A stretch of DNA of 64,000 nt from the sequence record OR525698.1. One strand, written 5' to 3'. Origin of the DNA: Escherichia phage vB-Eco-KMB43. The position numbers and the translations under genes were made by a program. The notes under the pieces were generated by a model. It worked only from the letters and a program-made list of their open reading frames with translations. It was not told the DNA's origin and did no database searches. Shown one piece after another: positions 613 through 33,077 of this stretch (position 1 is its first letter; each line of letters opens with the position of its first letter).

Positions 613-622
613 AGCAATCACC

Positions 623-1268: not shown

Positions 1269-1310
1269 ATTTGATTCTCCTGTAAAGTTGTATCTCGTCT
1301 TGATGAATAT

Positions 1311-2454: not shown

Positions 2455-2483
2455 GTTATCCTCTCGTTGTTTTCGATGTGAGC

Positions 2484-2511
2484 ATTATACATTAGCTAAT
2501 CAGGTTGTCAA
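2484..2511 (-). promoter_or_regulatory. sigma70-type early promoter cassette
   Basis: TTGACA-16-TATAAT, immediately downstream of terminator 2521..2549. Confidence 0.8.
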
Positions 2512-4956: not shown

Positions 4957-4986
4957 AATATAATCCTCTCGTTGTTAAGTGGGAGT

Positions 4987-5014
4987 ATTATAGCATACTC
5001 CCTTCGCATGTCAA
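4987..5014 (-). promoter_or_regulatory. sigma70-type early promoter cassette
   Basis: TTGACA-16-TATAAT. The -35 contains the TGA stop of ORF 5011..6189. Inverted repeat GGGAGTAT/ATACTCCC flanks the -10. Confidence 0.8.
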
Positions 5015-6189
5015 ACACTAACTTTTTTCTTTACTGCTTTCACCTTCTGGCGAATTGCTCGAATCTCTTCGATCTCTTTTTCAGTCTCTTTAACAATTTC
5101 TTTGCGATTCTGAATATCTGTATCTAGATTCTCATCGAGTTTAGGAAGCATGTCGATCAAGAACTTTTTAAGGTCTTTCAGGTTGCGAATAACAGTACCT
5201 TCACCCATTACCGCAACACCCACACCATCCGGCAGATCACCAAACAGCTTAACCAGTTCAGACAGATGATCATGATCTTCTAGTGCTTCTTCCGGTTCAG
5301 ATGGCAGTTCAACAAAGTTATAACGTTCATCATTGCTGATCAAGTGATACCAGCAAAGCCCGAAAGATTTCGGTGTATATTCTACACCATCAATTTCAAC
5401 CGCGTCAACACTTCCATAATCATCTACTTTAGTTACCTTAAATCCTTGTCCCAGCTTTTGAACAATTTCAACAACATGACTTGATACAGTTTCAGCGGTA
5501 AACCAATATGGCAAATTATGCTGATTTGGCTTGTAGCGTTCACCTACTTTAAATCTCTGACCATCCGCTTGCATAGCATGAAATTGTTGTTGCGTGATTT
5601 CCGCGAAGTATTCAAATTCGCTACCGTCAAACAAGCAATTCCATTGATCACAAAAACGATCTGCCTTAACAGTTTCACCTTTCGCGGTGATCATGGTAGC
5701 TGATCCGTGCAATTCTTCTTCAACTAAAAAGCCATATTCGACAAAATCAACAAGTTTCATAGCTTCTTTGTGATCTGGATCATGCTCTCCCCAGAATCGC
5801 TTAAATTCTTGCAAACCTTCTGGGGTAAACGAATAACATTTACCTTTTTCAAAGTAAGTCGGCATTGCATCCTCTTTCTTGTTCATCGCTTCGTATGCCT
5901 CTTTTGAGATACGTTTAAAGTATTTGCGCTCATTGTTCATAATCATAGTAGCCCAATAATCCACAATATCATTAGCGGAATAAACTACATCTCCAGCTTC
6001 AATAGTAATAACATGACCGTGGTCATCTTTTTCTAATACTTTAAAGCCCTTTTCTACGATTTCAGCAACCCGAATATGACCACGGCGCGAAGCATCGGTC
6101 AGAATAATTGAATAGCGAGAAAAGTCTAGAAACTCATCTTTACCGCCTTCACGGAATGCATAGTAATGACCTTCAAAGAATTTAGCCAT
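5011..6189 (-). CDS. hypothetical protein with three tandem copies of a ~90-aa domain plus a coiled-coil tail
   Basis: Internal repeats: GFKVLEKDDHGHV..NERKYFKRI, GFLVEEELHG..SEFEYFAEI, GFKVTKVDDYGSV..NDERYNFVEL. Has its own promoter cassette. Confidence 0.75.
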   Translation of the reverse strand: MAKFFEGHYYAFREGGKDEFLDFSRYSIILTDASRRGHIRVAEIVEKGFKVLEKDDHGHVITIEAGDVVYSANDIVDYWATMIMNNERKYFKRISKEAYEAMNKKEDAMPTYFEKGKCYSFTPEGLQEFKRFWGEHDPDHKEAMKLVDFVEYGFLVEEELHGSATMITAKGETVKADRFCDQWNCLFDGSEFEYFAEITQQQFHAMQADGQRFKVGERYKPNQHNLPYWFTAETVSSHVVEIVQKLGQGFKVTKVDDYGSVDAVEIDGVEYTPKSFGLCWYHLISNDERYNFVELPSEPEEALEDHDHLSELVKLFGDLPDGVGVAVMGEGTVIRNLKDLKKFLIDMLPKLDENLDTDIQNRKEIVKETEKEIEEIRAIRQKVKAVKKKVSV

Positions 6190-6220
6190 AATATAATCCT
6201 CTCGTTGTTTAGATGGGAGT

Positions 6221-6249
6221 ATCTTACTACTCCCGTTTCATCATGTCAA
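6221..6249 (-). promoter_or_regulatory. sigma70-type early promoter cassette
   Basis: TTGACA-17-TAAGAT. The -35 contains the TGA stop of ORF 6246..6812. Inverted repeat GGGAGTA/TACTCCC flanks the -10. Confidence 0.75.
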
Positions 6250-6812
6250 GCGTTAAATGACTTTTGGATCTCTTTCAGTTCAGCTACTTTATCGGCGCTA
6301 TATTTTGCTTGATGTTCCATGCGCTTAAGCTCACCTTTGATATAGGTTTCTAGCTTAGGTTTATTCTCAATCAGAAAATCTTTCAAGTCATCGGCATTTT
6401 TAAAGTATAGCTGATTGTCAAAGCTAAAATCTTCCAGCGTCAATGATACCAAAGAAGACTTCGCAAACAAGTTAATCAGACCTTCCAGAGATTCTTCTTT
6501 CTTAACTGGTTTCATTTCTTCAAACTGCTTTTTAGTGATGCGTTTAAAGTATTTGCGCTCGTTTGCAGCAATCAGAACAGATGCACCTTCATACCCATGA
6601 GTTTCTACCAGATACACACGCCCCATCGCATCAACAGTGAGAACTTTAAAGCCGTTACAAAGCACGTCATACAAGAACTTATTATGTTGCGGACATCGTT
6701 TGATAAATTCTGCGGCTGTTTCTGCACTACGGAAAGTGTAATAACGACCTCGTTCAAAAACAGCATCATTTGAAGACTTAGCCGGATACAATTTATACGT
6801 TTTCTGTACCAT
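6246..6812 (-). CDS. hypothetical protein, one copy of the same domain plus a coiled-coil tail
   Basis: GFKVLTVDAMGRV..NERKYFKRITKKQFEEM. Start moved to ATG 6812 after GAGGATTATATT. Confidence 0.7.
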   Translation of the reverse strand: MVQKTYKLYPAKSSNDAVFERGRYYTFRSAETAAEFIKRCPQHNKFLYDVLCNGFKVLTVDAMGRVYLVETHGYEGASVLIAANERKYFKRITKKQFEEMKPVKKEESLEGLINLFAKSSLVSLTLEDFSFDNQLYFKNADDLKDFLIENKPKLETYIKGELKRMEHQAKYSADKVAELKEIQKSFNA

Positions 6813-6838
6813 AATATAATCCTCTATCATTTCACTAA

Positions 6839-7099
6839 TTAAACAGCACGGAACAGAATGCGCTCACACGGAAGCAGCATAAATTCCCAACGCGGGTCAA
6901 AGTCTTTAGCGGTGTATGTTTTCCCATCAACCGCTATTTCACTTACATAACCAACAGGTGACACTTTAAGAACAGTAAACCCATTCTTGATGACTTCGTA
7001 GGTATCTTTCACCCCTTCGTATTCATCATCTAAGAAGTCTTTATGTGCTTGCTCAGATTTAAAAACATAGGCCACACCGGATTTAAACATCTTACGCAT
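6839..7099 (-). CDS. hypothetical protein, single copy of the same domain (86 aa)
   Basis: GFTVLKVSPVGYVSEIAVDG. The track ORF 6839..7159 reads through the promoter. ATG 7099 follows AAGGAGAATCAACA. Confidence 0.65.
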   Translation of the reverse strand: MRKMFKSGVAYVFKSEQAHKDFLDDEYEGVKDTYEVIKNGFTVLKVSPVGYVSEIAVDGKTYTAKDFDPRWEFMLLPCERILFRAV

Positions 7100-7130
7100 T
7101 GTTGATTCTCCTTCTTGATTAGATGGGAGT

Positions 7131-7159
7131 ATTTTACTACTCCCATTTCTTATTGTCAA
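7131..7159 (-). promoter_or_regulatory. sigma70-type early promoter cassette
   Basis: TTGACA-17-TAAAAT. Inverted repeat TGGGAGTA/TACTCCCA flanks the -10. Confidence 0.75.
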
Positions 7160-9492: not shown

Positions 9493-9923
9493 TATCCCTT
9501 CCTCAAATAAGTTCGCTCAATCTCTACCAGTTCGAAAAATTCATTCCAATCACACGGAAAATTGCAGTTTCCAAAATGGTCTTCGTTATAGAGTTCTTTA
9601 CCGGATGGCAGCTTAATATCTGTTACAGTATACCAACCGCAACAATCGCAATCACCCTCAGCAACAGAAACCTTCGTAGGAATTTGCATCATTGCTAGAT
9701 AGGTCGGTACGTCAGACTGTTCAAAGATCATGTAACCTTCATGGTCAAACGAGACAAAATTGTCATCACCCAAAAAAGGAATGTAATGGTCATAATCGGT
9801 TACAGGTTGACCGTGCAATTCCCATTCTACAATTTTAACATTACCACTAAACTTTATACCCATAATTTCAACAAGAAAATGAGTATCGTCAATGTAAATC
9901 TTACTAGGAGTTGGATAAACCAT
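9492..9923 (-). CDS. hypothetical protein (143 aa)
   Basis: Long ORF. Its stop overlaps the dam start (TAATG). SD variant GAGGATTATATA. Confidence 0.65.
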   Translation of the reverse strand: MVYPTPSKIYIDDTHFLVEIMGIKFSGNVKIVEWELHGQPVTDYDHYIPFLGDDNFVSFDHEGYMIFEQSDVPTYLAMMQIPTKVSVAEGDCDCCGWYTVTDIKLPSGKELYNEDHFGNCNFPCDWNEFFELVEIERTYLRKG

Positions 9924-9933
9924 TATATAATCC

Positions 9934-10227
9934 TCATATCTCAGAGAATAGAATCTCTGTTAGCTTCACTGACTGCTCTCTGAATGTTAGCGTATACTCG
10001 AAAGGAAAGTCAACACCCAACTTCAAAAGAGAATAGCCTACCGCCTCTTTATGCTTATCGGTTAGGGCGATCCTAACCAATTCCCGTTGAATCTCTTTAG
10101 GCGGTGAATGGATAGTAACACGGGTATCATGCAATGTCCAGTCACCATTACGAATTAAGATTAACGGTTTATCGTCATTGAAGATCACCGACCCCTTTCC
10201 GGTCGGTGAGTGTTTTATACTAATCAT
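9934..10227 (-). CDS. hypothetical protein (97 aa)
   Basis: ORF track 9934..10230 starts at TTG. ATG 10227 overlaps the upstream stop. Confidence 0.6.
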   Translation of the reverse strand: MISIKHSPTGKGSVIFNDDKPLILIRNGDWTLHDTRVTIHSPPKEIQRELVRIALTDKHKEAVGYSLLKLGVDFPFEYTLTFREQSVKLTEILFSEI

Positions 10228-10741: not shown

Positions 10742-11050
10742 TTATTTCACGTTAACGCCGTCATCAATCCAGCCGACGCTATTTGGTTTAACAGTTTTAC
10801 CATAGGATGCATACTTAATCAAGCATGGTTTAACATCATTATCAAATCTTCCTAAACGTACTCCCAAATCAGGAATATCCATGTATGCGGCTTTATATCC
10901 CCATGTGCCATATTCAGAATCAATCTCAACCGGACGGCCTTTAAAAGCATACACTACACCGTGACGGTCAACGATAACATAACAATAACCAGCCGGAAGA
11001 TACACAGTTTCGCCGTAAACTTTAACTGGAGTAGCAGAAGAGATAAACAT
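10742..11050 (-). CDS. hypothetical protein (102 aa)
   Basis: ORF directly downstream of promoter cassette 11085..11113. SD is GAGGATTATATT. Confidence 0.65.
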   Translation of the reverse strand: MFISSATPVKVYGETVYLPAGYCYVIVDRHGVVYAFKGRPVEIDSEYGTWGYKAAYMDIPDLGVRLGRFDNDVKPCLIKYASYGKTVKPNSVGWIDDGVNVK

Positions 11051-11084
11051 AATATAATCCTCACATCGTTCATTTGATGCGGCT

Positions 11085-11113
11085 ATTATAGATTAACCGC
11101 ATTTTCATGTCAA
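11085..11113 (-). promoter_or_regulatory. sigma70-type early promoter cassette
   Basis: TTGACA-17-TATAAT. Inverted repeat GCGGTTA/TAGCCGC flanks the -10. Confidence 0.8.
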
Positions 11114-11439: not shown

Positions 11440-11718
11440 TTACATGTCTTGCAGTGCATAAAAGCATTTTTCTTCGTAGTCATAGAAAATGTCAAAGTAT
11501 GCTTTTTCTACATACTCACCATTGATCCAAGCGGCAGTAACAATCAGAGTGGTCCAGTTAGATCCGCTCTCAACGGTAAAGGTTTTAATACCCAGCTTCA
11601 CAGCAAGGTCACGAGCAAACTGGTCACAACCACGGCAGGAAGTGATATTGGAAGTTTTGATTTTAAAGCCACCGCGAGTTTTAGAAATTTCTACTTTAGC
11701 GAAAGACAGGTTGCTCAT
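11440..11718 (-). CDS. hypothetical protein (92 aa)
   Basis: The track ORF 11440..11775 reads through the promoter. ATG 11718 follows AAGGAGAATCAAA. Confidence 0.65.
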   Translation of the reverse strand: MSNLSFAKVEISKTRGGFKIKTSNITSCRGCDQFARDLAVKLGIKTFTVESGSNWTTLIVTAAWINGEYVEKAYFDIFYDYEEKCFYALQDM

Positions 11719-11760
11719 TTTGATTCTCCTTAAGAAAGTGTGTTTCGTTTTGATGTGTGT

Positions 11761-11789
11761 AGTATAGGGGATCACCGATCCCCTGTCAA
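11761..11789 (-). promoter_or_regulatory. sigma70-type early promoter cassette
   Basis: TTGACA-17-TATACT. Spacer palindrome GGGGATCGGTGATCCCC. Confidence 0.75.
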
Positions 11790-12365: not shown

Positions 12366-12622
12366 CACAGTTTCCTCAACCAGTTATTAAAGCGAGTAAA
12401 CCATGATGCTTTTCGTGCTTCTTTTACTTTATATGCACGCAAACCACTGAAACACCATTCATAATCATCACTGAAACATGATTCAACAGGAACACCCGCA
12501 TTTCGTAGTTCTCTGGTCTTTATCATGAATCCTTGACATAAGGGGCGACCTTCAACAATGATAGGAAGTTTAACTTTTTCCATGAAAGTATACCCAGCAC
12601 GGTCAATAATTTCAATCTTCAT
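12365..12622 (-). CDS. hypothetical protein, small paralog family (85 aa)
   Basis: MKIEII...FMEKVKLPIIVEG...TRELRNAGV...YEWCFSG, clearly paralogous to 12633..12845. Confidence 0.65.
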   Translation of the reverse strand: MKIEIIDRAGYTFMEKVKLPIIVEGRPLCQGFMIKTRELRNAGVPVESCFSDDYEWCFSGLRAYKVKEARKASWFTRFNNWLRKL

Positions 12623-12632
12623 AATATAATCC

Positions 12633-12845
12633 TCAATTAGTTATAGCGCGTGCTTCGTTGCCAGTAAAGCACCATTCATACTTACGATTATGAATACCTG
12701 AAACAGATACACCAGCTTTGATCAATTCTCCAGTTGCCACAAGAAACGATCCGCCAAACTTCTTACCTTCTACAACAATTGGTAATTCAACACCTTTCAT
12801 AAAGCTAAATGCAATATCTTCTAAAGTAAAAATTTCAATTTTCAT
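12633..12845 (-). CDS. hypothetical protein, small paralog family (70 aa)
   Basis: MKIEIF...FMKGVELPIVVEG...TGELIKAGV...YEWCFTG. Confidence 0.65.
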   Translation of the reverse strand: MKIEIFTLEDIAFSFMKGVELPIVVEGKKFGGSFLVATGELIKAGVSVSGIHNRKYEWCFTGNEARAITN

Positions 12846-13089: not shown

Positions 13090-13520
13090 TTTGTGATCTC
13101 CTTATACTCAACACACCATAAGCGGGTAGCCCATGATAAACGCTCATAACGCTGGCAGAAATCGGACCATAGATATTGTGTACCGTCTTGCATGGTTGAA
13201 ATATGCGTTTTCTCACCTACTTTCACGAAAGAAGTATTCGATTTTGTGATCTCGACCGGAGTATATCCGAAAGCTGGTTCCAAGTCAACATCTGAACTAA
13301 ATGCTAATTTAACAGAATTTGTTTTTCTGACCGCTGTCCGGTTTCCTTCTGGGTATAGCACAGCAGGTTTAGCGCCTAAGCGGATAAACTCAGTGTTTTT
13401 AATAAACAGAATATCATGATAACCGTCATATTCCGACACTTCCATAGTAACAGGAAAATCGACAGGTTCTAAACCTGGTAGATCTCGCATATCATGAAAG
13501 GTCGCCATCAACTTTTTCAT
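13086..13520 (-). CDS. hypothetical protein (144 aa)
   Basis: Start moved to ATG 13520 after GAGGAATATAGA. The FPVTMEV...IKNTEFIRLG segment resembles the family motif. Confidence 0.6.
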   Translation of the reverse strand: MKKLMATFHDMRDLPGLEPVDFPVTMEVSEYDGYHDILFIKNTEFIRLGAKPAVLYPEGNRTAVRKTNSVKLAFSSDVDLEPAFGYTPVEITKSNTSFVKVGEKTHISTMQDGTQYLWSDFCQRYERLSWATRLWCVEYKEITK

Positions 13521-13530
13521 TCTATATTCC

Positions 13531-13728
13531 TCACTCTTCTGTTTCATTTCTTTTATATGGTACTATAACAGGATTAATACAGCAAGCACCAATTACGTTA
13601 TGAGCACCACAATTTAAGCATTTATAATCATGGAACTTATTAAGGAATCGCCCGAACTCATAACCGACCAACGCCGAGTGTACTTGAGTCTCGATCTCAT
13701 CCATATCAGCCAATGTTTTAACCTTCAT
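13531..13728 (-). CDS. small Cys-containing hypothetical protein (65 aa)
   Basis: Start moved to ATG 13728 after GAGGATTATATT. Contains CLNCG...CC. Confidence 0.6.
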   Translation of the reverse strand: MKVKTLADMDEIETQVHSALVGYEFGRFLNKFHDYKCLNCGAHNVIGACCINPVIVPYKRNETEE

Positions 13729-13738
13729 AATATAATCC

Positions 13739-14029
13739 TCAAATACTGGTTTTGCGAAGATGGTCATTACATGCTTTTAATGCATCAGTCGCGGTGTCAT
13801 AGCGAGTATTATCATAGCACCAATAACCATCTGTCAACTGATAAATTAATCCATCCTTTTTAGCGTCGATGAAAGACAATTCTTTGAAAGTTTCTACTTT
13901 CTTTGCTGATACTCCACGGTCACGGCGTTTATAGAGTTTAGCTAAAACGCGTTCAGCTTGTTCCTCTTTATCGCCAGACAGATCCCAGATGACGTTTCTG
14001 ATATGCTTGATTAATTGTTCAGTGGTCAT
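13739..14029 (-). CDS. hypothetical protein (96 aa)
   Basis: ORF downstream of promoter cassette 14060..14087. SD is AAGGAGAATCAAAT. Confidence 0.65.
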   Translation of the reverse strand: MTTEQLIKHIRNVIWDLSGDKEEQAERVLAKLYKRRDRGVSAKKVETFKELSFIDAKKDGLIYQLTDGYWCYDNTRYDTATDALKACNDHLRKTSI

Positions 14030-14059
14030 ATTTGATTCTCCTTAGTTGGTATGGTTATC

Positions 14060-14087
14060 ATTATACGGGGATTTCTCCCCGTGTCAA
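14060..14087 (-). promoter_or_regulatory. sigma70-type early promoter cassette
   Basis: TTGACA-16-TATAAT. The spacer is the hairpin CGGGGA-GAAA-TCCCCG. Confidence 0.8.
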
Positions 14088-14090: not shown

Positions 14091-14312
14091 TTAAATGATC
14101 TCTGCTTCACCGTTAAGGAAGAAAGACCATGTTTTGTTAGGATAGCGAAGCGCCCATGATTCAGCAGTTTTAACACCAGCTTCAAACAATTGACGGCTGG
14201 TTACTTTAGCCATACCATCTTCGATGGCAACGTTTTCAATAATCATCGGGTACTTAGCGCCACGCATGAAACCGAAGCCAGCGGAAGATTTGATAATTTT
14301 AACAGTTGCCAT
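14091..14312 (-). CDS. hypothetical protein, small paralog family (73 aa)
   Basis: FGFMRGAKYPMIIEN...TSRQLFEAGV...WSFFLNG. Has its own promoter cassette. Confidence 0.65.
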   Translation of the reverse strand: MATVKIIKSSAGFGFMRGAKYPMIIENVAIEDGMAKVTSRQLFEAGVKTAESWALRYPNKTWSFFLNGEAEII

Positions 14313-14353
14313 TTTTGATTCTCCTAGAAAGTGTATCTCGTTTCGATGTGTGT

Positions 14354-14382
14354 ATTATGCAATAACACAGGATCGCTGTCAA
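14354..14382 (-). promoter_or_regulatory. sigma70-type early promoter cassette
   Basis: TTGACA-17-CATAAT. Leader ACACACATCGAAACGAGATACAC...AGGAGAATCAAAAATG. Confidence 0.75.
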
Positions 14383-15367: not shown

Positions 15368-15566
15368 TCTTCACGGTCTCCATAATTGTTTTGTAAGCCA
15401 GTTTAAGATGATCACCGAAAAACTTTGCGGTGTTACCCTTCGGATCGCGGAGCATGGTTTCTACGATCTCATCGGCAGTAACAATTTCTCCTTTCTTTGC
15501 TGCATGTTCTACCATATACTTCAAAGTTTCTTCGGAAGCAAGTGCTGCCGCTACTGGATTAATCAT
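15357..15566 (-). CDS. hypothetical protein (69 aa)
   Basis: First gene behind promoter cassette 15597..15625. SD is AAGGAGAATCAAAA. Confidence 0.6.
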   Translation of the reverse strand: MINPVAAALASEETLKYMVEHAAKKGEIVTADEIVETMLRDPKGNTAKFFGDHLKLAYKTIMETVKNAK

Positions 15567-15596
15567 TTTTGATTCTCCTTTGTTGTCGATGTGTGC

Positions 15597-15625
15597 ATTA
15601 TGCTATACCCTATTCCGGTTGTCAA
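15597..15625 (-). promoter_or_regulatory. sigma70-type early promoter cassette
   Basis: TTGACA-17-CATAAT, directly after terminator 15631..15662. Confidence 0.8.
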
Positions 15626-15894: not shown

Positions 15895-16293
15895 TTAAGA
15901 CAGTCGAGTGAGTTTATAAATTGTTTTAAAACATAGAGCTTTGATATCGTCTAAAACGCTCTGTAACGAGCTATCAACATCATTATAAATCTCACTAGCC
16001 ATTTGCGTTAACTCTTGCAAATAGGCAATTTCGCTAATCTCCTTGCGGACGACCAACGTTGGCTGATAACGACCAGTGATCCCAATATTGGTTTCAGTGA
16101 AATCATCAACCAATTCTTGCATTTCAAGATAGAACTCTTCTAGAGCCTTATGTTTTGCATAAGATCCAGGACCAGTTACCCCAAAATGCGCAGAATGCAT
16201 ATAAGTAACACTCATCAGACATTCACCGATAAAGCGGTCAACTTTATTAGCTTTCCCCTCTTCGGACGTCTTTCGAAAATCACTGAATTTCAT
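15895..16293 (-). CDS. Dps/ferritin-like four-helix-bundle protein (132 aa), tentative
   Basis: HSAHFGVTGPGSYAKHKALEEFYLEMQELVDDFTE fits the Dps pattern H[WF].V.G..F..H...EE.Y......D...E. Start moved to ATG 16293 after GGAGAATCGAGAAC. The track ORF extends spuriously to 16392. Confidence 0.55.
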   Translation of the reverse strand: MKFSDFRKTSEEGKANKVDRFIGECLMSVTYMHSAHFGVTGPGSYAKHKALEEFYLEMQELVDDFTETNIGITGRYQPTLVVRKEISEIAYLQELTQMASEIYNDVDSSLQSVLDDIKALCFKTIYKLTRLS

Positions 16294-16582
16294 GTTCTCG
16301 ATTCTCCATATTATGCAACATAACAAACTGTTGTGCGGCATATTCCCCCATAATAAAACACTGCTTAGAATCCATACATTTACTACGAGCATACATCTTC
16401 ATAATATGGGCATGAAATTTCTGGCTGGTTTCAATGGAAGGAGATATTTTGTTTACATATACTATCATTGCGCCGTCGAAATAATCAGTAAAGTCACCAG
16501 TTGGATCATATTGATCAGCACTGACACTTCCGACCGCAGTCAAGCATATTGCCGCTGTTAGAGTTTTACGAATAAATGACAT
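16280..16582 (-). CDS. small secreted protein (100 aa) with a signal peptide
   Basis: N-terminus MSFIRKTLTAAICLTAVGSVSA/DQ looks like a Sec signal. SD is GGGGGAATGACTT. A late-promoter motif lies upstream. Confidence 0.6.
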   Translation of the reverse strand: MSFIRKTLTAAICLTAVGSVSADQYDPTGDFTDYFDGAMIVYVNKISPSIETSQKFHAHIMKMYARSKCMDSKQCFIMGEYAAQQFVMLHNMENREHEIQ

Positions 16583-17942: not shown

Positions 17943-18387
17943 ATTCAACCACCACAATGTTAATGTCTGGAGTAGCAATATTAATGATCTCTTCTACACA
18001 TTCCCACTCAAGGCCACCGATACCGCAACCGATTTTAGGAATATAGAAAGGCTGTATAGCACCTTCAAAAACATCATTGATAGTCTCAAATCCTTTCAGG
18101 ATAGCACCATATTCAGCATTTGGACCCGGTCGGAATTGGGTATAGAGATTCACCCCGCACCAGTTATAACCATTAACTTGATGCGTCCAGACACTAAACC
18201 CACCCAGCTTTTCTACCTTACCGCGAGAAGTTTGCTTGTCAATCTCTAACGCTTGCGGGAACTCTTTCGCGATCTTTGCAGCAATACCAGCGCCCATAGT
18301 ATGAAAACAATTACAACCATGAATTAAATGACCGTTTCCTTGTTTAAACAGGGCGATGAGATCGCCCTTTACAGTATCAATAATCAT
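17932..18387 (-). CDS. macro-domain protein (Poa1p/Appr-1''-pase-like ADP-ribose binding or hydrolase fold)
   Basis: GDL...HGCNCFHTMGAGIA...IPKIGCGIGGL matches the H.CNC....G.GIA macro-domain signature. Confidence 0.75.
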   Translation of the reverse strand: MIIDTVKGDLIALFKQGNGHLIHGCNCFHTMGAGIAAKIAKEFPQALEIDKQTSRGKVEKLGGFSVWTHQVNGYNWCGVNLYTQFRPGPNAEYGAILKGFETINDVFEGAIQPFYIPKIGCGIGGLEWECVEEIINIATPDINIVVVEYDK

Positions 18388-18402
18388 AATATAAACCTCT
18401 CA

Positions 18403-18769: not shown

Positions 18770-19360
18770 TCAATAGCGTTTAGTCTTAAGAATGCCTTTA
18801 CTCTTTAGATGGTTAGCCTTTTTTAGTACGTCATCAGCATAACCTAATCCGGCTTTATAGTTCCATCCAGCATTGTAAGAAGCTAGCGCGAGTCGGATAT
18901 TACCGTTTCGAACATCCAGCCAGTATGCTAACTCATCCATCGCGTAGAATGCAGAAACCTCGCGATTCATGATAAAGTTGATAGTCTGGCGATCACTCAT
19001 TTTAACACCGCGCTTTGCATTTTTCGCTTTCACCGTTTTAAGGTAATTTTGAAATAATCCATAAGCATGATGATTTTTCTTTGGTGCTAAGTTTGCACCC
19101 GCGCTTGATTCTTGCCATGCGATACCCGCCAGGATGTGACCTAAACCCTTTCCGTTATAGCGAATATTCGGATGGTCCTTTTTCAACTTACCGCTTTTCT
19201 CGAATTGCTCGCCGTATTGATAGGCGAAATGTAAATTATCTAGTTGGTGTGCTGTAAAGTTGTCTATCGGCGCTTTTTTGATCGGTGCGCTAGTCGATGC
19301 GTGTGTAGCACCAACGGCTAGTGACAGACTCAATACTATCGCTTTTAGAACTTTTAACAT
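18770..19360 (-). CDS. secreted lytic transglycosylase-like protein (SLT domain)
   Basis: Signal peptide, then GIAWQESSAG (the catalytic E-S motif of SLT) and ASYNAG. Occupies the T4 vs.1 position next to regB. Confidence 0.7.
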   Translation of the reverse strand: MLKVLKAIVLSLSLAVGATHASTSAPIKKAPIDNFTAHQLDNLHFAYQYGEQFEKSGKLKKDHPNIRYNGKGLGHILAGIAWQESSAGANLAPKKNHHAYGLFQNYLKTVKAKNAKRGVKMSDRQTINFIMNREVSAFYAMDELAYWLDVRNGNIRLALASYNAGWNYKAGLGYADDVLKKANHLKSKGILKTKRY

Positions 19361-19394
19361 TAATTTCTCCTGTTTGGCTTAACTTTCTGATTCC

Positions 19395-19423
19395 ATAATA
19401 TAGCCCTATCACCAGAAAGTCAA
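19395..19423 (-). promoter_or_regulatory. sigma70-type promoter (weaker match)
   Basis: TTGACT-17-TATTAT. Inverted repeat CTTTCTG/CAGAAAG flanks the -10. Lies upstream of the SLT-like gene. Confidence 0.55.
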
Positions 19424-19446: not shown

Positions 19447-19869
19447 TTATTGGTCTACCTTCAAAACAACCGCCGACATTTTACCCGCCAGTCGTTTTGG
19501 ATTCTCTATAATCATTCGACAGCATAGACCGTGATACGGCTTGCCGTCTTCAATTAGGTCTACTGTCATCCCGATCCACATGTTACCGTCAGTAATTTCT
19601 AATCGATTAGGTCGGTCTTCCATTTTCAGGAAGTCGAAGATCTCCGGCAAACGAGTTTCTATCTTATTGAATAGTTCCATTGTCTTATGTTCATCGATAT
19701 GACGATCGGTTAGACGGTCGATCATATGCGGACTAAAGCGAATAAAAATATACTCACCATAACCATCATTCAAACACTTTTCTTTGATCTGCGCATTGGT
19801 TTTGCGCATTTCGGTTTCGAAGAATCTACGCAGCTTACTACGGCGAACATGTACGTTAATTGTTTCCAT
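19447..19869 (-). CDS. regB: RegB endoribonuclease (cleaves GGAG in early mRNA)
   Basis: METINVHVRRSKLRRFFE...NRLEITDGNMW...CRMIIENPKRLAGK aligns with recalled T4 RegB (FIRRNKLRRHFE...GRLEITDGNLW...CRMAIINSRRLPGK). Start moved to ATG 19869. Confidence 0.75.
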   Translation of the reverse strand: METINVHVRRSKLRRFFETEMRKTNAQIKEKCLNDGYGEYIFIRFSPHMIDRLTDRHIDEHKTMELFNKIETRLPEIFDFLKMEDRPNRLEITDGNMWIGMTVDLIEDGKPYHGLCCRMIIENPKRLAGKMSAVVLKVDQ

Positions 19870-19873
19870 TTTA

Positions 19874-20209
19874 TTATCCTTTCTTAAACAAATTGCGAAT
19901 CCAGTATACAAACGGGATTTCTTTAAACTTGAACTTGTCAATAGTTAATTCTTTAGTAGCAAGATGAATACCATAAGCATCATGTGTAACTATATGCCAT
20001 TTTCTATAGTCCAAATGTGAACAACCGTCTGGATCTAGGTTAATAAGAGTTTCTCTCTCACTAGGATTATTTTTCCACAATTTTGTAATAGGATCGCACA
20101 TAATTCGACCTAGCGTACCATGAATAATCTCACAACGGTAAAGTTTTCCAGCAGTGAGATAGGCGCACCCGTCATAGTCGGTATAAACAAACACTTCTTT
20201 AACACTCAT
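19874..20209 (-). CDS. hypothetical protein, member of a 3-gene paralog set (111 aa)
   Basis: The track ORF reads through the promoter. ATG 20209 follows AAAGGAGTATTAAA. Contains LTAGKLY...DPDGCSHLDYRKWHIV. Confidence 0.6.
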   Translation of the reverse strand: MSVKEVFVYTDYDGCAYLTAGKLYRCEIIHGTLGRIMCDPITKLWKNNPSERETLINLDPDGCSHLDYRKWHIVTHDAYGIHLATKELTIDKFKFKEIPFVYWIRNLFKKG

Positions 20210-20240
20210 TTTAATACTCCTTTGTTGTTTCGATGGGGGT

Positions 20241-20269
20241 ATATTACTACCCCCGATCATGTGTGTCAA
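20241..20269 (-). promoter_or_regulatory. sigma70-type early promoter cassette
   Basis: TTGACA-17-TAATAT. Inverted repeat GGGGGTA/TACCCCC flanks the -10. Confidence 0.75.
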
Positions 20270-22618: not shown

Positions 22619-23194
22619 TTATTTTGGATCTGGGAAATTCAATAGAGCATATTCTCCATAAAATTTCCTAGCTGCATTATCATAAGCGATTGCAGCTTCG
22701 ATTTCTGTGTCATATTGTCCAAGAACATGTCTTTGTAGGTTGACCATTATACTAGCTCTCCATTTCTTACGCAAATCCTTCCTGTTACACTTACTAACAC
22801 CCTTATACACACTAGAAAACTTTTTAGACTTCTTCTTTCTATTATGTTGATTTTGCGCGTCGGTTGCCTCCCTAAGATTTGGAGGATTGTTATTAGCAGG
22901 ATTACCGTCAATATGATCAATTAATCTAACTTGCGTCCCATGTTCTAGAAACCAAACAACCCTATGCACGAATAAATGAACTCTAGGAAGACCGTCATCT
23001 CTACTATGCCAAAATCGAAGATGACCATCTTTATTTGTTCTGACTTTAACTAAATCGCCGTGTTTATATCTACTCCCTAATGGTCGTCCTTTGATAGCTT
23101 TACTATCGACTCTATAATATAAGATACCCTCTATATGAGCATATCTAAGTTTTATCTCGTTTTGTAGGGATTCATCCCAATATTTAAAAGCCAT
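22619..23194 (-). CDS. free-standing HNH homing endonuclease with an AP2 domain (second copy)
   Basis: HRVVWFLEHG...IDHIDGNPANNNPPNLREATDAQN (HNH) and YKGVS...WRASI...LGQYDTEIEAAIAYDNAA (AP2). Visibly more AT-rich than its neighbours. Confidence 0.85.
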   Translation of the reverse strand: MAFKYWDESLQNEIKLRYAHIEGILYYRVDSKAIKGRPLGSRYKHGDLVKVRTNKDGHLRFWHSRDDGLPRVHLFVHRVVWFLEHGTQVRLIDHIDGNPANNNPPNLREATDAQNQHNRKKKSKKFSSVYKGVSKCNRKDLRKKWRASIMVNLQRHVLGQYDTEIEAAIAYDNAARKFYGEYALLNFPDPK

Positions 23195-23209
23195 TTTATA
23201 ATCCTCACA

Positions 23210-24971: not shown

Positions 24972-25248
24972 TAGCAAGCACCTCCACATTTTCACAGAAT
25001 GAAATTTTCACAGACACAATTTTACCATAAGTGAAGAATGAATATACATTATCGAGATATTCAACGTCACCTACAATCACATCAAACTGCGGATCAGCAA
25101 CCACCGCAACATATTCTACCAGTTCATCAAGAGAATGCAACTTAATTTCATCAATTCGGCTGTATTTGGTCGCATCTTTAATTTTAAAACCAAGTTCTTT
25201 CAGCTTGTCAATCAGAATTTCACGCGGAGTTTCAAACAGTTTGCTCAT
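24928..25248 (-). CDS. hypothetical protein (106 aa)
   Basis: ORF with SD GAGGATTATATT. Confidence 0.6.
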   Translation of the reverse strand: MSKLFETPREILIDKLKELGFKIKDATKYSRIDEIKLHSLDELVEYVAVVADPQFDVIVGDVEYLDNVYSFFTYGKIVSVKISFCENVEVLASEPEKPTDNGPSAA

Positions 25249-25269
25249 AATATAATCCTCACATTAAAT

Positions 25270-25856: not shown

Positions 25857-26183
25857 TTAGAAAGAAACAGTTTTCAAGAAATCCAGATTTTTAGTACCGA
25901 AAACAGAAAAGTAGTGTTCTCCTTTTTCGGTTTTAGAGAAAGCGATTGTCTTCTCTACATGGTGACGGAAGCCAGACAGACGATCACCCAGGTCAAGGCG
26001 GCAAGCGTAAGTAGTGCCGTTTTCGAAAGTAACCTCGATTTGAGTTTTGTCATATTCGCTTTCATAGGCTTTTGCTGCTGCGTCCTGTGCTTTACGCTCG
26101 AAGTCTTCGAAGTGGAATACTTCGTTTGCGTTAGCGAATACAGAAGATTCAGAGAAGATAACTTTAACAGATACTGGTTTCAT
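25857..26183 (-). CDS. hypothetical protein (108 aa)
   Basis: First gene behind promoter cassette 26226..26254. Confidence 0.65.
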   Translation of the reverse strand: MKPVSVKVIFSESSVFANANEVFHFEDFERKAQDAAAKAYESEYDKTQIEVTFENGTTYACRLDLGDRLSGFRHHVEKTIAFSKTEKGEHYFSVFGTKNLDFLKTVSF

Positions 26184-26203
26184 TTTGATACTCCTTAGTA
26201 GTT

Positions 26204-26236
26204 CGTGTTTCGTTTCGATGGGTGTATTATGCTATA
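26204..26236 (-). repeat. 33-bp perfect direct repeat, copy 1 (cassette leader plus -10)
   Basis: cgtgtttcgtttcgatgggtgtattatgctata is identical to 27182..27214. Confidence 0.9.
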
Positions 26237-26254
26237 CACCCTCTCTCGTGTCAA
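26226..26254 (-). promoter_or_regulatory. sigma70-type early promoter cassette
   Basis: TTGACA-17-CATAAT. Leader ACACCCATCGAAACGAAACACG. Confidence 0.8.
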
Positions 26255-26677: not shown

Positions 26678-26905
26678 TTATAGTTGATCAGCAATGTATG
26701 CGGTGCATTTGCGGAGTTTAGCCATAGCACCACCTTTCATGTCGCTTGCGCCTACAATGTTCATGATCTCTAAGCGATCAGCCGGATTCAGTCTAGTAGC
26801 CCAGATCTGGTTAGCCAGTTCCATTTTACCCATCTGCGGTTCCATCTCAAACATTTCACGCTCAAAGTCGATAATTTCTTTTGCTGCGTCTTTAAAGTTA
26901 ATCAT
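26678..26905 (-). CDS. hypothetical protein (75 aa)
   Basis: First gene behind promoter cassette 26935..26963. Confidence 0.6.
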   Translation of the reverse strand: MINFKDAAKEIIDFEREMFEMEPQMGKMELANQIWATRLNPADRLEIMNIVGASDMKGGAMAKLRKCTAYIADQL

Positions 26906-26934
26906 TTTGGTCCTCCCGTTTCGTTGATGGTTGT

Positions 26935-26963
26935 ATTGTAGGGGAGTTATCCTCCCATGTCAA
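26935..26963 (-). promoter_or_regulatory. sigma70-type early promoter cassette
   Basis: TTGACA-17-TACAAT. Spacer hairpin GGGAG-GATAA-CTCCC. Confidence 0.7.
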
Positions 26964-26971: not shown

Positions 26972-27157
26972 TCAGAAATATGCAATATAGTTTGCCAGTC
27001 CTACAGAGTCATCATTCGGCATTGCTTTTACCGCCAGTTCAAACCCTGCTTCAACTTTCTGTTTAGCGGATTCTTCGTTATAACCCCAGATGACCAGAAT
27101 AGCTACTACGTTTTCTTTGCTTACTGCTTTCAGTGCTTTAGTGATGCGACGTGCCAT
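26972..27157 (-). CDS. hypothetical protein (61 aa)
   Basis: Single gene behind promoter cassette 27204..27232. Confidence 0.6.
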   Translation of the reverse strand: MARRITKALKAVSKENVVAILVIWGYNEESAKQKVEAGFELAVKAMPNDDSVGLANYIAYF

Positions 27158-27181
27158 AATTTGATTCTCCGTTTAAGAAAG

Positions 27182-27214
27182 CGTGTTTCGTTTCGATGGG
27201 TGTATTATGCTATA
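27182..27214 (-). repeat. 33-bp perfect direct repeat, copy 2
   Basis: Identical to 26204..26236, 978 bp away. Confidence 0.9.
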
Positions 27215-27232
27215 GGCGTGATCTGGTGTCAA
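27204..27232 (-). promoter_or_regulatory. sigma70-type early promoter cassette
   Basis: TTGACA-17-CATAAT, directly after terminator 27259..27286. The leader is identical over 33 nt to cassette 26226..26254. Confidence 0.8.
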
Positions 27233-28556: not shown

Positions 28557-28715
28557 TTATTTGCTAATCGCTAAACCCAATCCGAAGAGAGCACCCGATG
28601 CTACAGTATACCCGAAAGTTTCAAAGGCAGTAAAGATATCTAAGCCGCCAGCTAACAGAGTTGCAGTAAACAGAGTACCAGCTACGAACATAAAAGTTTT
28701 ACCGATAAATTTCAT
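28557..28715 (-). CDS. small membrane protein (52 aa), not in the ORF track
   Basis: MKFIGKTFMFVAGTLFTATLLAGGLDIFTAFETFGYTVASGALFGLGLAISK. ATG 28715 follows AAGGAGAATCAAA and sits behind cassette 28738..28766. Confidence 0.5.
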   Translation of the reverse strand: MKFIGKTFMFVAGTLFTATLLAGGLDIFTAFETFGYTVASGALFGLGLAISK

Positions 28716-28737
28716 TTTGATTCTCCTTTCGTTTGTT

Positions 28738-28766
28738 TGTGGGGGGTATCTTACTACCCCCGTTTC
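28738..28766 (-). promoter_or_regulatory. sigma70-type early promoter cassette
   Basis: TTGACA-17-TAAGAT. Inverted repeat GGGGGTA/TACCCCC flanks the -10. Confidence 0.75.
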
Positions 28767-28782
28767 ATGTTGTCAACTGTTT

Positions 28783-29157
28783 TTAAGAAAATTTTACTTC
28801 GTCTACAATGTCTTTCATGACATTGATTTCCATTCCGGTCAGAACACGTTGGAACATGTGCTGCACATACGCTTTCAGGTATTCATTTGATGGCTTGCTA
28901 TCGAAAGTCTTTTTAGTGTAGTAGTCATCACCGAAAGCTACTGTAATTACATTTTCGTCGTCGTTCCAAGCGATATAAGCAAATTTGCCGTTATCCCAGA
29001 AGCGAGCACTAATTGCTACTTTTGTTGAATCGAATCCTACTTCGCTGTGAGATTCAAGAACTACTTGCGTGCCAGTTTCTTTATGAATGTAGTAGCGGGA
29101 TACTAAGTCAAAGTTACGGGTGTAGTGACATTCGAATTTATCTTTAAACATCATCAT
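28783..29157 (-). CDS. hypothetical protein (124 aa)
   Basis: Single gene behind promoter cassette 29196..29224. Confidence 0.65.
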   Translation of the reverse strand: MMMFKDKFECHYTRNFDLVSRYYIHKETGTQVVLESHSEVGFDSTKVAISARFWDNGKFAYIAWNDDENVITVAFGDDYYTKKTFDSKPSNEYLKAYVQHMFQRVLTGMEINVMKDIVDEVKFS

Positions 29158-29195
29158 TTTTGATTCTCCTAAGTGTGTTTCGTTTCGATATGTGC

Positions 29196-29224
29196 ATTAT
29201 GCTATAGTCGTTTATGGTTGTCAA
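29196..29224 (-). promoter_or_regulatory. sigma70-type early promoter cassette
   Basis: TTGACA-17-CATAAT, directly after terminator 29231..29262. Confidence 0.8.
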
Positions 29225-30028: not shown

Positions 30029-30685
30029 TTAAATGTTCGCGAGAATCGCGCTTTCAAATTCTTCTAATGTACCATTATTTATGATAATGGTTTCACTGTC
30101 AATAGGCAAAATTCCTTTTTCGGTGGAGTGAGTCGATACAATACCAGTATCACGCTGAATATGCAACACCTTAGCACCCATAGCACGCACGAGAGCAATT
30201 TCAATAGGCTGACGCACATCAACCACTACAAAATAACCTTCTTCATTTTTGCGCTTCATAAACTCATTAACGAAGAGATTACACCAATAAAGCGGATTGA
30301 TCAAGTTAACCATTATATCAGTACCGAGAGTGGTTAACATGAGACGAATAGACCAGACGTTATTATGTTTTTCGCCAATCTCATTAACGACCTTGTAAAT
30401 CTCAGCCAGACGATCACAAGTAAAGGAACTACCTCCATACTTCGAATCTAGCATAAGCAGACACTGAATAAACCACTTATGCGCGGTATAGGTATCAATA
30501 CCTAGATCGGATTCTCTGTCACGCCCTAACCCGTCAAAGTCAAGATAAGTCAGACCTAAGTCTGGTTGACATTCGCACAATATTTCTTTGATCGGTGCTG
30601 CCAGTTGATAACTATGTCCATCAATGATTAACGCGGCAGTGTCTTTTCCTACTCGCTTTTTACCACAAAGTGCAATCAATTTCAT
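30029..30685 (-). CDS. 1: deoxynucleoside monophosphate kinase
   Basis: P-loop LCGKKRVGKDT at the N-terminus. Size and position (between 57A and 3) match T4 gene 1. Confidence 0.85.
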   Translation of the reverse strand: MKLIALCGKKRVGKDTAALIIDGHSYQLAAPIKEILCECQPDLGLTYLDFDGLGRDRESDLGIDTYTAHKWFIQCLLMLDSKYGGSSFTCDRLAEIYKVVNEIGEKHNNVWSIRLMLTTLGTDIMVNLINPLYWCNLFVNEFMKRKNEEGYFVVVDVRQPIEIALVRAMGAKVLHIQRDTGIVSTHSTEKGILPIDSETIIINNGTLEEFESAILANI

Positions 30686-30700
30686 TATATAAGCCTCTTA

Positions 30701-31480: not shown

Positions 31481-31735
31481 ATGACAGAAGACATTTTGTT
31501 AAAACTCTATGATCGTTTGGATAACGAATTAGCAACATTGCGGGGTGAAGTTCTCTATTTGTCTAAATGCAATACAGATCTGCTTAAGCAGATTGCAGAA
31601 AGGGATGATCAAATAAAATCCCTTTCAGGTGCATTACGTGATCGCGACAAGGCATTAGAGATTTTACAGCGTGTTACCAATAAGGAAGAATTAAAAGACT
31701 TCTTACATGGTTATGCTCATGCTATCGATCTATAA
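31481..31735 (+). CDS. hypothetical coiled-coil protein (84 aa) on the opposite strand between genes 3 and 2
   Basis: ORF with SD AGGA 6 nt upstream. Heptad-rich. Followed by hairpin 31736..31762. Confidence 0.5.
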   Translation: MTEDILLKLYDRLDNELATLRGEVLYLSKCNTDLLKQIAERDDQIKSLSGALRDRDKALEILQRVTNKEELKDFLHGYAHAIDL

Positions 31736-31767: not shown

Positions 31768-32589
31768 TTATGCATCCTTCCAAACTTTCCTTGCGTCGTA
31801 TTTCTTGCCTTTTGACATAAACTGATATGTCGGCATATAGATAATATTGCTCCAGTCTTTCGGGCTAATCTCAACAAGTTTTGTTTTAATGTGTCCCGGT
31901 AGATATGCTTTGATCATGTGGTCACTACCACGCATACCTTTTACATCGCTCCATTTGATTTTTAAGCGTGTTTTATTGCTCAAGGTAGGAGTAGATGCAT
32001 ATTGCTTTAAAAGTGCTTCCAGAAACTGCTGACGGGCTTTAGGCGTTACATAGTGTAAGTTAAGACCCAGCATTACAGTATTACCCGCCTTTGTCTTAGA
32101 ATCACCCAGACAAATGATCAGCGGGAAAACATCCCAATATGGCAAAGTGTCTTTATACTTCGCATCATACATAAAGGTATAGATTCGCCCTACTTGCGGT
32201 TTTACAATCTGGTGTCCCTTTATTCCCGCTTTTATTGTTTTAGTAAACCACTCCTGTGATTTTTCTTTAGGACGACTCTTTGATACAGCACGCATAGACG
32301 CACGAAAATCATTAATCATCATCATTGCGCGTTGCTGCTTATTGAGACCCTTTGCGCCTTTCCCTTTTAGTTTTTCAACTTCTATTGCTGTTTTAATTTC
32401 GCTTGCATAACGAGACATACTTTTAGTGAAAGTCGCATAGGCTATTCCCTTAGAATCTGCAAATGCTTTAGCTGTCATGCCTTTGGCTTTTGCTTTCGCA
32501 AATTCTACACCCAATTCGACCCACTGTTTAGACTTTCTTTTTTGGGGAGACGGCTTTTCGTCTTCTGTGATTATTTCAAATACGCTCAT
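31768..32589 (-). CDS. 2: DNA end protector protein gp2
   Basis: 273 aa, basic, positioned between genes 4 and 3 as in T4 (gp2 is 274 aa). Confidence 0.8.
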   Translation of the reverse strand: MSVFEIITEDEKPSPQKRKSKQWVELGVEFAKAKAKGMTAKAFADSKGIAYATFTKSMSRYASEIKTAIEVEKLKGKGAKGLNKQQRAMMMINDFRASMRAVSKSRPKEKSQEWFTKTIKAGIKGHQIVKPQVGRIYTFMYDAKYKDTLPYWDVFPLIICLGDSKTKAGNTVMLGLNLHYVTPKARQQFLEALLKQYASTPTLSNKTRLKIKWSDVKGMRGSDHMIKAYLPGHIKTKLVEISPKDWSNIIYMPTYQFMSKGKKYDARKVWKDA

Positions 32590-32600
32590 AATATTATCCT

Positions 32601-33077
32601 CTATTTGTTAAGCCCTTTAAAGCCAAACACTTTCTTTAATGCATGTTCGGTGATGATCTTAAACTCCATGTTATGCTTTTGGCACAAATCAACCGCAGCT
32701 TTCCACTTTTCCGTGTTTACAGTATATGTGTAACACTCTTGCATGTATCTTTGCTTAGTCTTAGTGGTTATTCTTTTTGGCCTTTCCGGTGGCCGTGTCT
32801 CTTTTGCCGGTTTAACTTCCCATAAGAACTCTTTACCATCTACAAATTTCACCCAAAAATCCATATGATACTTTCTGGATCGTTTATCTGCGCTAGACCA
32901 GTAAGGTATAATCACACACTCAGAGTTCCATTTAGACACGCTAGGACTACGGTCCAAAAATTTCATTATGTGCAATTCCCAGCTTGATCTATAAGTGATT
33001 TTATGCAAGTTGTTTCCTTTGTACTTCTCAGGATTTTCTGGCTTGAACTTGCCCTTATAAGTGTTAGATCCTCCCAT
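32601..33077 (-). CDS. 4: head completion protein gp4
   Basis: 158 aa. Divergent from gene 53 as in T4. Contains the motif SSWE......D....V..W..E...IPY. Confidence 0.85.
   Translation of the reverse strand: MGGSNTYKGKFKPENPEKYKGNNLHKITYRSSWELHIMKFLDRSPSVSKWNSECVIIPYWSSADKRSRKYHMDFWVKFVDGKEFLWEVKPAKETRPPERPKRITTKTKQRYMQECYTYTVNTEKWKAAVDLCQKHNMEFKIITEHALKKVFGFKGLNK

Follow-up and report, generated by a model that had tools for sequence, protein, structure and literature searches.

Early Promoter Cassettes with GGAG Start Sites as Putative RegB Targets in an RB49-Like T4-Type Coliphage

The closest described counterpart of the system considered here is the RegB endoribonuclease of phage T4, whose principal targets are the GGAG Shine-Dalgarno (SD) sequences of early first cistrons (PMC1702504, PMC3014915). 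The T4 site, read jointly by RegB and ribosomal protein S1, spans 11 nucleotides (nt), and is given as GGAGAAUAAAA (PMC1702504) or, in a review, as GG*AGRAYARAA (PMC3014915). The GGA triplet of this site does not vary, its best-conserved A residues stand at positions 6, 8, and 11, and C is "almost completely excluded" (PMC1702504). What follows the triplet on its 3' side is read by S1, and RegB alone recognizes only GGA (PMC1702504). Among the T4 intergenic GGAG sites tested (n=68), cleavage is efficient at 24, moderate at 2, and poor or absent at 42, while only 2 of 30 GGAU sites are cut and 28 are resistant, a strict A-rich flank being needed (PMC1702504). A second relevant system is that of the promoter early stem-loop (PeSL) cassettes of phages RB49 and phi1, whose 3' end is described as the SD plus start codon of the gene that follows (PMC2839356), and for which recombination between the -10 box and the SD is documented (Arbiol et al. 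2010, PMC2839356; Comeau et al. 2014, PMC4122927). In the PeSL papers the SD serves as an alignment anchor and recombination boundary, with no mention of RegB or GGAG (PMC2839356, PMC4122927), and our literature search for a link between RegB and either PeSL cassettes or Krischvirus returned none. Here we compare both systems with a 64,000-nt stretch of Escherichia phage vB-Eco-KMB43 (OR525698.1), the whole of which we call the window, where a regB gene at 19447-19869(-) lies among two recurrent start-site words, termed class 1 and class 2 in a preliminary description of this DNA.

The window, 96-99% identical to Krischvirus genomes (RB49, JSE, GEC-3S, and phi1-type), represents the early/hyperplastic region of an RB49-like, T4-type coliphage belonging to Krischvirus. 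Minus-strand early/hyperplastic genes extend from position 1 to about 33100, and late structural genes make up the remainder. The best overall explanation of the start sites, one that we are slightly inclined to accept from the combined analysis, is that PeSL early cassettes carry class 1 SDs as putative RegB/S1 targets, and that class 2 sites are probably weak substrates or none.

RegB and the class 1 cassettes

The open reading frame (ORF) at 19447-19869(-) encodes a 140-amino-acid (aa) protein that we identify as the RegB site-specific endoribonuclease, in agreement with the preliminary description. It matches Pfam PF10715 (REGB_T4) with E=1.5e-48 over profile positions 4-148 of 148, scoring 165 bits against a cut-off of 27, and the solved T4 RegB structure (PDB 2HX6) with E=4.8e-26. 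Identity reaches 98.6% with RB49 RegB and 100% with a protein of phage Ec_Makalu_001, but falls to about 41-44% with T-even RegB; in total, 1136 phage records contain RegB homologs. The orthologous ORF is annotated as regB or endoribonuclease in the JSE, GEC-3S, and RB49 records, with vs.1 adjoining, and the locus thus shares with T4 a homologous enzyme, a vs.1 neighbor, and an early promoter upstream. An ungapped alignment to 2HX6 indicates that T4 residues E19, which we take to be catalytic or otherwise essential, H48, and R52 are all kept in the window protein. The 2HX6 entry is the H48A structure, and the window protein has H at its A48, while around R52 the two read MIDR versus LLDR. In T4 the R52L mutant of RegB is inactive (PMC1702504). 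The window protein also has additional histidines opposite T4 residues 57 and 61.

The regB gene is the second of an operon headed by the gene at 20209, from which it is separated by a 4-nt gap. Its own SD resembles the T4 consensus closely:

19869-19879, minus strand: SD of regB, a putative autoregulatory RegB site, GGAUAAUAAAA (its last A being the A of AUG), which matches GGAGRAYARAA at 10 of 11 positions

The only departure is U at position 4, so that the site is GGAU, whereas the T4 regB SD is GGAG; both nevertheless conform to a GGA(G/U)-AAUAAAA site, implying autoregulation in either phage. The regB SD of RB49 has been reported as GGAU, and the tested regB SDs of T4-related phages are always cut in vivo, in a statement that does not name RB49 (PMC3014915). 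Both regB in RB49 and its autoregulatory GGAU SD are already published.

The class 1 word, GGAGAATCA, is present in nine exact copies in the window, all on the minus strand, as had been counted before; 0.56 copies are expected, and none of 100 shuffles reaches nine. Together with the GGAG variants at 20209, 26183, and 26905, which also proved to be as described, these make up 12 sites, each just upstream of a minus-strand ATG. The start coordinates given in the preliminary description for either class each correspond to the A of such an ATG. Each of the 12 is preceded, at a distance of 29-46 nt, by a promoter composed of TTGACA-N16/17 and a -10 hexamer, upholding the claim that they stand directly behind promoter cassettes. 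The underlying scan covered real intergenic gaps only and tolerated mismatches (-35 at least 5/6, -10 at least 4/6, spacer 16-17); 17 intergenic sites of the window met these thresholds, and GEC-3S annotates promoters upstream of most orthologous genes.

An alignment of 16 promoter-proximal regions reveals a tract rich in A/T, a TTGAC that never changes, inverted repeats of G-runs and C-runs that lie within the spacer and -10 box or span them, and a common CA-rich leader (ATCGAAACGAAACAC...) followed by the SD and ATG. Stems of this kind, read by eye from the sequence, include GGGGGTAG-TAAGAT-ACCCCCC (28715), GGGGATCGGTGATCCCC (11718), CGGGGAGAAATCCCCG (14029), GGGAGTAGTAAAATACTCCC (7099), and GGGGATCTCGCGATCCCC (1268), and are not obvious in every cassette (e.g., 27157 and 14312). 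The twelve cassettes are the following:

29155-29224, minus strand: PeSL-type cassette, TTGACA-N17-CATAAT, leader, class 1 SD GGAGAATCA at 29161-29169, ATG 29157 (from motif count and alignment)
28713-28776, minus strand: PeSL-type cassette, GGGGG/CCCCC stem across the -10, class 1 SD at 28718-28726, ATG 28715
27155-27232, minus strand: PeSL-type cassette, class 1 SD at 27162-27170, ATG 27157
26903-26963, minus strand: PeSL-type cassette, class 1 variant GGAGGACCAAA, ATG 26905
26181-26254, minus strand: PeSL-type cassette, class 1 variant GGAGTATCAAA, ATG 26183
20207-20269, minus strand: PeSL-type cassette, class 1 variant GGAGTATTAAA, ATG 20209, first gene of the regB operon
15564-15625, minus strand: PeSL-type cassette, class 1 SD at 15570-15578, ATG 15566
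14310-14382, minus strand: PeSL-type cassette, class 1 SD at 14316-14324, ATG 14312
14027-14087, minus strand: PeSL-type cassette, CGGGGAGAAATCCCCG stem in the spacer, class 1 SD at 14033-14041, ATG 14029
11716-11789, minus strand: PeSL-type cassette, GGGGATCGGTGATCCCC stem, class 1 SD at 11721-11729, ATG 11718
7097-7159, minus strand: PeSL-type cassette, GGGAGTAG..ACTCCC stem, class 1 SD at 7103-7111, ATG 7099
1266-1339, minus strand: PeSL-type cassette, class 1 SD at 1272-1280, ATG 1268

Like the PeSL cassettes of RB49 and phi1, the class 1 cassettes combine a near-consensus sigma70 promoter (TTGACA-N17-TATAAT) and an AT-rich upstream tract with a G-run/C-run stem-loop between or across the -35 and -10; their 3' end is made by the SD and start codon of the downstream gene, and they lie in ORFan-rich hyperplastic regions of the same phage genus. 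We find no structural difference between the two. The class 1 word, GGAGAAUCA(AA), is the SD module at the 3' end of the published PeSL cassettes and not a free-standing class of ribosome-binding site (RBS). The cassettes head small ORFan genes and have been multiplied through the genome, the class 1 genes having a median length of 72 aa.

The same holds in the complete RB49 genome, where the class 1 9-mer occurs 27 times, always on the early strand. Called genes follow 25 of the 27 copies, and 24 of these 25 copies are promoter-proximal; one copy precedes a gene without a promoter. At NC_005066 2586-2597 (minus) a class 1 start, AAAGGAGAATCAAAATG, lies inside the 3' end of the upstream gene with no promoter within 100 nt, and represents a promoter-less copy of the SD module. 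The 27th copy of GGAGAATCA, at 78591, runs antisense in the late region; as it has neither a promoter nor a nearby ATG, we took it to be a chance occurrence.

Regarding the distribution of GGAG itself, such an SD precedes 13 of the 17 promoter-proximal genes in the window and 17 of the 63 others (80 minus-strand genes; odds ratio (OR) 8.8, p=4e-4). The whole-genome enrichment analysis suggested in the preliminary description gives a similar picture for the 226 early-strand genes of RB49 (37/51 promoter-proximal vs. 38/175 other; OR 9.5, p=8e-11), and on the late strand of that phage a GGAG SD is found at 9 of 46 genes. Promoter-proximal genes are therefore strongly enriched in GGAG SDs without being their sole carriers. 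The 17 promoter-distal genes of the window include tk, gene 49, 57A, and 57B; RB49 has 75 GGAG SDs, among them 38 promoter-distal ones, and 14 of its 51 promoter-proximal genes have no GGAG. The statement that only the promoter-proximal class carries GGAG has therefore to be abandoned, and that of "two discrete classes" is overstated. No start-site words recur more often than classes 1 and 2, yet these account for 25 and 11, respectively, of the 226 RB49 early-strand genes (~16%), and the remaining genes display a spread of other SDs. A third small group of start sites, UGAGGUGAA, has 5-6 copies.

Class 2 start sites

The class 2 word, GAGGATTATATTATG, occurs in seven exact copies in the window, the number previously given, all on the minus strand just upstream of an ATG, where none is expected. 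The four variants listed at the time (9923, 18387, 23194, and 32589) are present as described, but a fifth, with two mismatches and preceding gene 1, had been overlooked at 30685. Including one related sequence, the sites are:

11048-11113, minus strand: class 2 exact copy (site 11048-11062) in a promoter cassette TTGACA-N17-TATAAT, ATG 11050
6187-6249, minus strand: class 2 exact copy (6187-6201) in a promoter cassette, frd.2/goF-like gene, ATG 6189
4954-5014, minus strand: class 2 exact copy (4954-4968) in a promoter cassette TTGACA-N16-TATAAT, ATG 4956
2452-2511, minus strand: class 2-like SD GAGAGGATAAC-ATG in a promoter cassette, start 2454
6810-6824, minus strand: class 2 exact copy, operon-internal, 26-nt gap, start 6812
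12620-12634, minus strand: class 2 exact copy, upstream TGA stop overlapping the SD (uUGAGGAUU), 10-nt gap, start 12622
13726-13740, minus strand: class 2 exact copy, TGA stop overlapping the SD, 10-nt gap, start 13728
25246-25260, minus strand: class 2 exact copy, operon-internal, 21-nt gap, start 25248
9921-9935, minus strand: class 2 variant with one mismatch, TGA stop overlapping the SD, start 9923
18385-18399, minus strand: class 2 variant GAGGTTTATATTATG, tk.4 phosphatase, no GGA triplet, start 18387
23192-23206, minus strand: class 2 variant GAGGATTATAAAATG, in which GGAUUAUAAAA matches the RegB/S1 consensus at 9 of 11 positions, start 23194
30683-30697, minus strand: class 2 variant GAGGCTTATATAATG, two mismatches, before gene 1 (dNMP kinase), start 30685
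32587-32601, minus strand: class 2 variant GAGGATAATATTATG, before late gene 2 (DNA end protector), start 32589

As can be seen, the exact copies at 4956, 6189, and 11050 and the related sequence at 2454 stand directly behind promoter cassettes, which contradicts the portrayal of class 2 as the promoter-distal counterpart of class 1. In RB49 the class 2 15-mer is found 11 times, always on the early strand; 10 of the copies precede called genes, 3 in a promoter-proximal and 7 in a distal position. As a start site the class 2 word, (U/A)GAGGAUUAUAUUAUG, is general-purpose, being used at intercistronic junctions, in variant form before late genes 1 and 2, and in some promoter cassettes. Part of its use recalls the stop-codon/SD overlap junctions of T4-type operons, since at 12622, 13728, and 9923 the SD contains the TGA of the upstream gene (UGAGGAUU), always at a distance of 10 nt from the ATG. 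Unlike such junctions, however, the class 2 15-mer is also used after gaps of 21-70 nt and behind promoters, and coupling therefore fails to explain every copy. The same geometry (TGA within the SD, UGAGG..., 10-nt gap) recurs at 13520-13534 and 612-626(-), and a TAA version is seen at 21929 and 11429.

The relationship between the two classes is best illustrated by the cassettes at 7097-7159(-) (class 1) and 6187-6249(-) (class 2), whose -35, GGGAGTAG..ACTCCC stem, -10 region, and leader are nearly base-identical, while the SD module differs. From its sequence this pair looks like a modular exchange of the SD segment. No switching between class 1 and class 2 was found at orthologous genes among the window, RB49, and GEC-3S, which display small changes and a single variant-to-exact class 1 difference. 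With transcription starts taken 7 nt after the -10, the predicted leaders measure 22-39 nt and are weakly structured (minimum free energy -0.6 to -8.6 kcal/mol), neither class standing out; in these predictions the bases of the 11-mer are unpaired with a mean probability of 0.31-0.78 in class 1, variants included, and of 0.51-0.66 in class 2.

Match to the RegB/S1 site and competing explanations

The 11-mer of class 1, GGAGAAUCAAA, matches GGAGRAYARAA at 10 of 11 positions (6 of 7 in the flank, AAUCAAA), and so cleavage of class 1 is plausible; judged by sequence, it is a good but imperfect candidate RegB site. As in T4, we encounter GGAG SDs on the first cistrons of early transcripts and an 11-nt word of GGAG plus A-rich sequence near the T4 consensus, but the candidate target here is one near-identical word (nine times in the window, 27 times in RB49, with C at position 8), as opposed to the many diverged A-rich sites of T4. 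Weighing these features, we lean a little toward class 1 being efficiently cut by RegB. The corresponding class 2 sequence, GGAUUAUAUUA, matches at 7 of 11 positions: GGA and the A residues at 6, 8, and 11 are kept, but U occupies position 4 and also positions 5, 9, and 10 (flank UAUAUUA). The GGA triplet is thus followed by G in class 1 and by U, the rare tolerated form, in class 2. We consider class 2 a poor candidate site that is rather probably largely resistant; as its flank matches poorly, escape is likely, but not assured. The preliminary description was right that class 2 lacks GGAG, but to conclude from this that it escapes cleavage does not follow, since GGAU is the second target of RegB. 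Conversely, several promoter-distal GGAG SDs (20706, 13089, 16293, 24066, and 11429) score 9/11. In our analysis the presence or absence of GGAG would predict RegB sensitivity only roughly.

We used RB43 (NC_007023) as a single control genome, in which no RegB homolog was detected (best whole-genome tblastn E=2.6, vs. 3e-93 in RB49). A GGAG SD precedes 75 of 226 early-region genes in RB49 (33%) and 32 of 231 in RB43 (14%). After gaps of at least 45 nt the frequencies are 43/86 (50%) and 16/72 (22%), and after shorter gaps 32/140 (23%) and 16/159 (10%), respectively. Among the post-gap GGAG SDs, 33 of 43 in RB49 and 4 of 16 in RB43 score at least 9/11. Behind TTGACA-type promoters RB43 has no GGAG enrichment (2/13 vs. 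30/218), few such promoters being detected in this genome. That RB49 exceeds RB43 in enrichment and comes closer to the RegB/S1 consensus is consistent with a link to RegB.

Several observations weigh against this link. The single mismatch of class 1 puts C at position 8, where T4 sites have one of their three most conserved A residues, and the discriminating cofactor, Escherichia coli S1, is common to T4 and the RB49-type phage. Where T4 RegB has ELFHKIK the window protein has ELFNKIE, with N in place of an H that we take to be H68, one of two histidines reportedly required for full RegB activity; because of this replacement the T4 rules may not transfer exactly, and the specificity of RegB in the window phage may differ from that of T4. 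The post-gap enrichment is significant in both genomes (OR 3.4, p=4e-5 in RB49; OR 2.6, p=0.02 in RB43), and since RB43 without RegB still shows a weaker version of it, the enrichment is partly generic, first cistrons favoring a strong SD. Moreover, class 1 sites are copies of one amplified cassette family, so that enrichment and high consensus scores are not independent events and could reflect cassette spread alone. Finally, the gene starts, promoters, and transcription start sites entering the statistics are uncurated predictions of a simple strand-aware caller, whose starts matched the RB49 or GEC-3S annotation wherever genes were checked.

The main rival explanation is that RegB is irrelevant to the pattern and class 1 a plain translation signal hitch-hiking on the cassettes, the exact repetition of both words being the product of PeSL duplication and recombination combined with selection for strong, unstructured start sites. 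First cistrons, for which translational coupling is not available, would need strong SDs, and class 1 would be at best a poor RegB substrate owing to C8, a base disfavored in T4 RegB/S1 sites. We regard this as possible though rather unlikely. The PeSL papers document -10-to-SD recombination and never invoke RegB, the same promoter, stem, and leader can carry either SD module (7099 vs. 6189), and RB43 shows the 22% versus 10% difference after gaps in the absence of the enzyme. The natural class 1 variants include GGAGUAUCAAA, GGAGUAUUAAA at 20209, and GGAGGACCAAA; at the ortholog of 26905 (window 26906-26916(-)) the window and RB49 have GGAGGACCAAA, whereas GEC-3S has the exact class 1 word, GGAGAATCAAA, two clustered changes that suggest, from sequence, conversion between cassettes. 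Nevertheless, a 10/11 match to an 11-nt consensus exceeds the needs of a generic SD, the high scores of post-gap GGAG SDs in RB49 have no equivalent in RB43, and in T4 the GGAG SDs of early first cistrons are the main RegB targets.

A different scenario, in our view improbable, is that both classes are RegB substrates, the RB49-type enzyme accepting GGAU as well as GGAG and the classes differing in kinetics, with class 2 perhaps the slower. The GGAU of the RB49 regB SD and the consistent in vivo cleavage of tested regB SDs (PMC3014915), the recognition of GGA only by RegB alone (PMC1702504), the A residues kept by class 2 at 6, 8, and 11, and the presence in the window of 13 genes with GGAU-only SDs all favor it. 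Yet 28 of 30 T4 intergenic GGAU sites are resistant and a strict A-rich flank is required, whereas class 2 has U at 5, 9, and 10; furthermore, class 2-type start sites are found at late genes 1 and 2 as well as at core replication-era genes, to which cleavage would be harmful. Least tenable, and very improbable, is the strict model put forward originally, of two discrete RBS classes with GGAG confined to a promoter-proximal, RegB-inactivated immediate-early regulon and class 2 promoter-distal and protected: it agrees with the GGAG enrichment and the promoter-proximal position of class 1 (12/12 sites in the window, 24/25 in RB49), but not with the promoter-distal GGAG SDs (17 in the window, 38 in RB49), the three of seven exact class 2 copies that are promoter-proximal, the 14 of 51 RB49 promoter-proximal genes without GGAG, the ~16% of early-strand genes covered by the two classes, or the fact that GGAG alone does not define a RegB site.

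Proposed mechanism and minor features

Under the explanation that we favor, of PeSL cassettes with class 1 SDs as putative RegB/S1 targets, host RNA polymerase would fire the cassettes immediately after infection, and their strong, accessible GGAG SD would cause the first cistron to be translated in a burst. RegB, itself the product of such a transcript, would then act with host S1 to cut between G2 and A3 of GGAGAAUCAAA, destroying the SD. The resulting 5'-OH end would be converted by the phage polynucleotide kinase (PNK) into an entry site for RNase G/E, as in the T4 RegB-PNK-RNase G/E pathway (PMC3014915); as in T4, a PNK gene, pseT, is annotated in RB49. RegB would also limit itself through its own GGAU SD, GGAUAAUAAAA, and class 2 (GGAUUAUAUUA), its fourth base being U and its A-rich flank poor, would probably be a weak substrate or none.

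In this context we tentatively put forward, as a proposal that we rate below an even chance, that PeSL cassettes are complete "burst-and-shut-off" modules, in which promoter, terminator, and RBS are joined by a built-in RegB/S1 site, GGAGAAUCAAA. If so, any ORFan captured behind a cassette would receive immediate-early expression, followed by RegB-triggered silencing and 5'-end-dependent decay, and a gene would be switched to sustained expression by replacing the SD module with GAGGAUUAUAUU, the difference seen between the otherwise nearly identical 7099 and 6189 cassettes. Post-transcriptional shut-off would then be added to the functions of cassettes so far seen as promoters, terminators, and recombination sites. 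Similarly, if class 1 sites are true RegB/S1 sites, RB49-type phages would offer a clean natural test set for the reading downstream of GGA by S1/RegB, comprising about 27 near-identical targets, a few naturally occurring variants (GGAGUAUCAAA, GGAGUAUUAAA, and GGAGGACCAAA), and a form of the same cassette with a GGAU module. The cassettes, RegB, and the RegB/S1 site rules have each been published already, and the proposed link between PeSL cassettes and RegB appears a modest, plausible extension of T4 biology to a sister genus.

Some additional features of the window deserve mention. At the start of rI.-1 (16293-16320(-)), inside the 3' end of rI, the ATG is preceded by GCATAAT-AT-GGAGAATCG, a -10-like box fused to a near-class 1 SD and possibly, from its sequence, a degraded half-cassette. 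The gene following regB has a promoter of its own:

19358-19423, minus strand: promoter TTGACT-N17-TATTAT and GGAG SD GGAGAAATTAA of vs.1, ATG 19360, directly downstream of regB (from promoter scan and sequence)

Lastly, a solitary plus-strand ORF of 84 aa, 31481-31735(+), occupies part of the 476 nt that separate minus-strand genes 3 and 2. Both RB49 (RB49p130) and GEC-3S annotate it as hypothetical, and a bidirectional terminator after it is annotated in GEC-3S.

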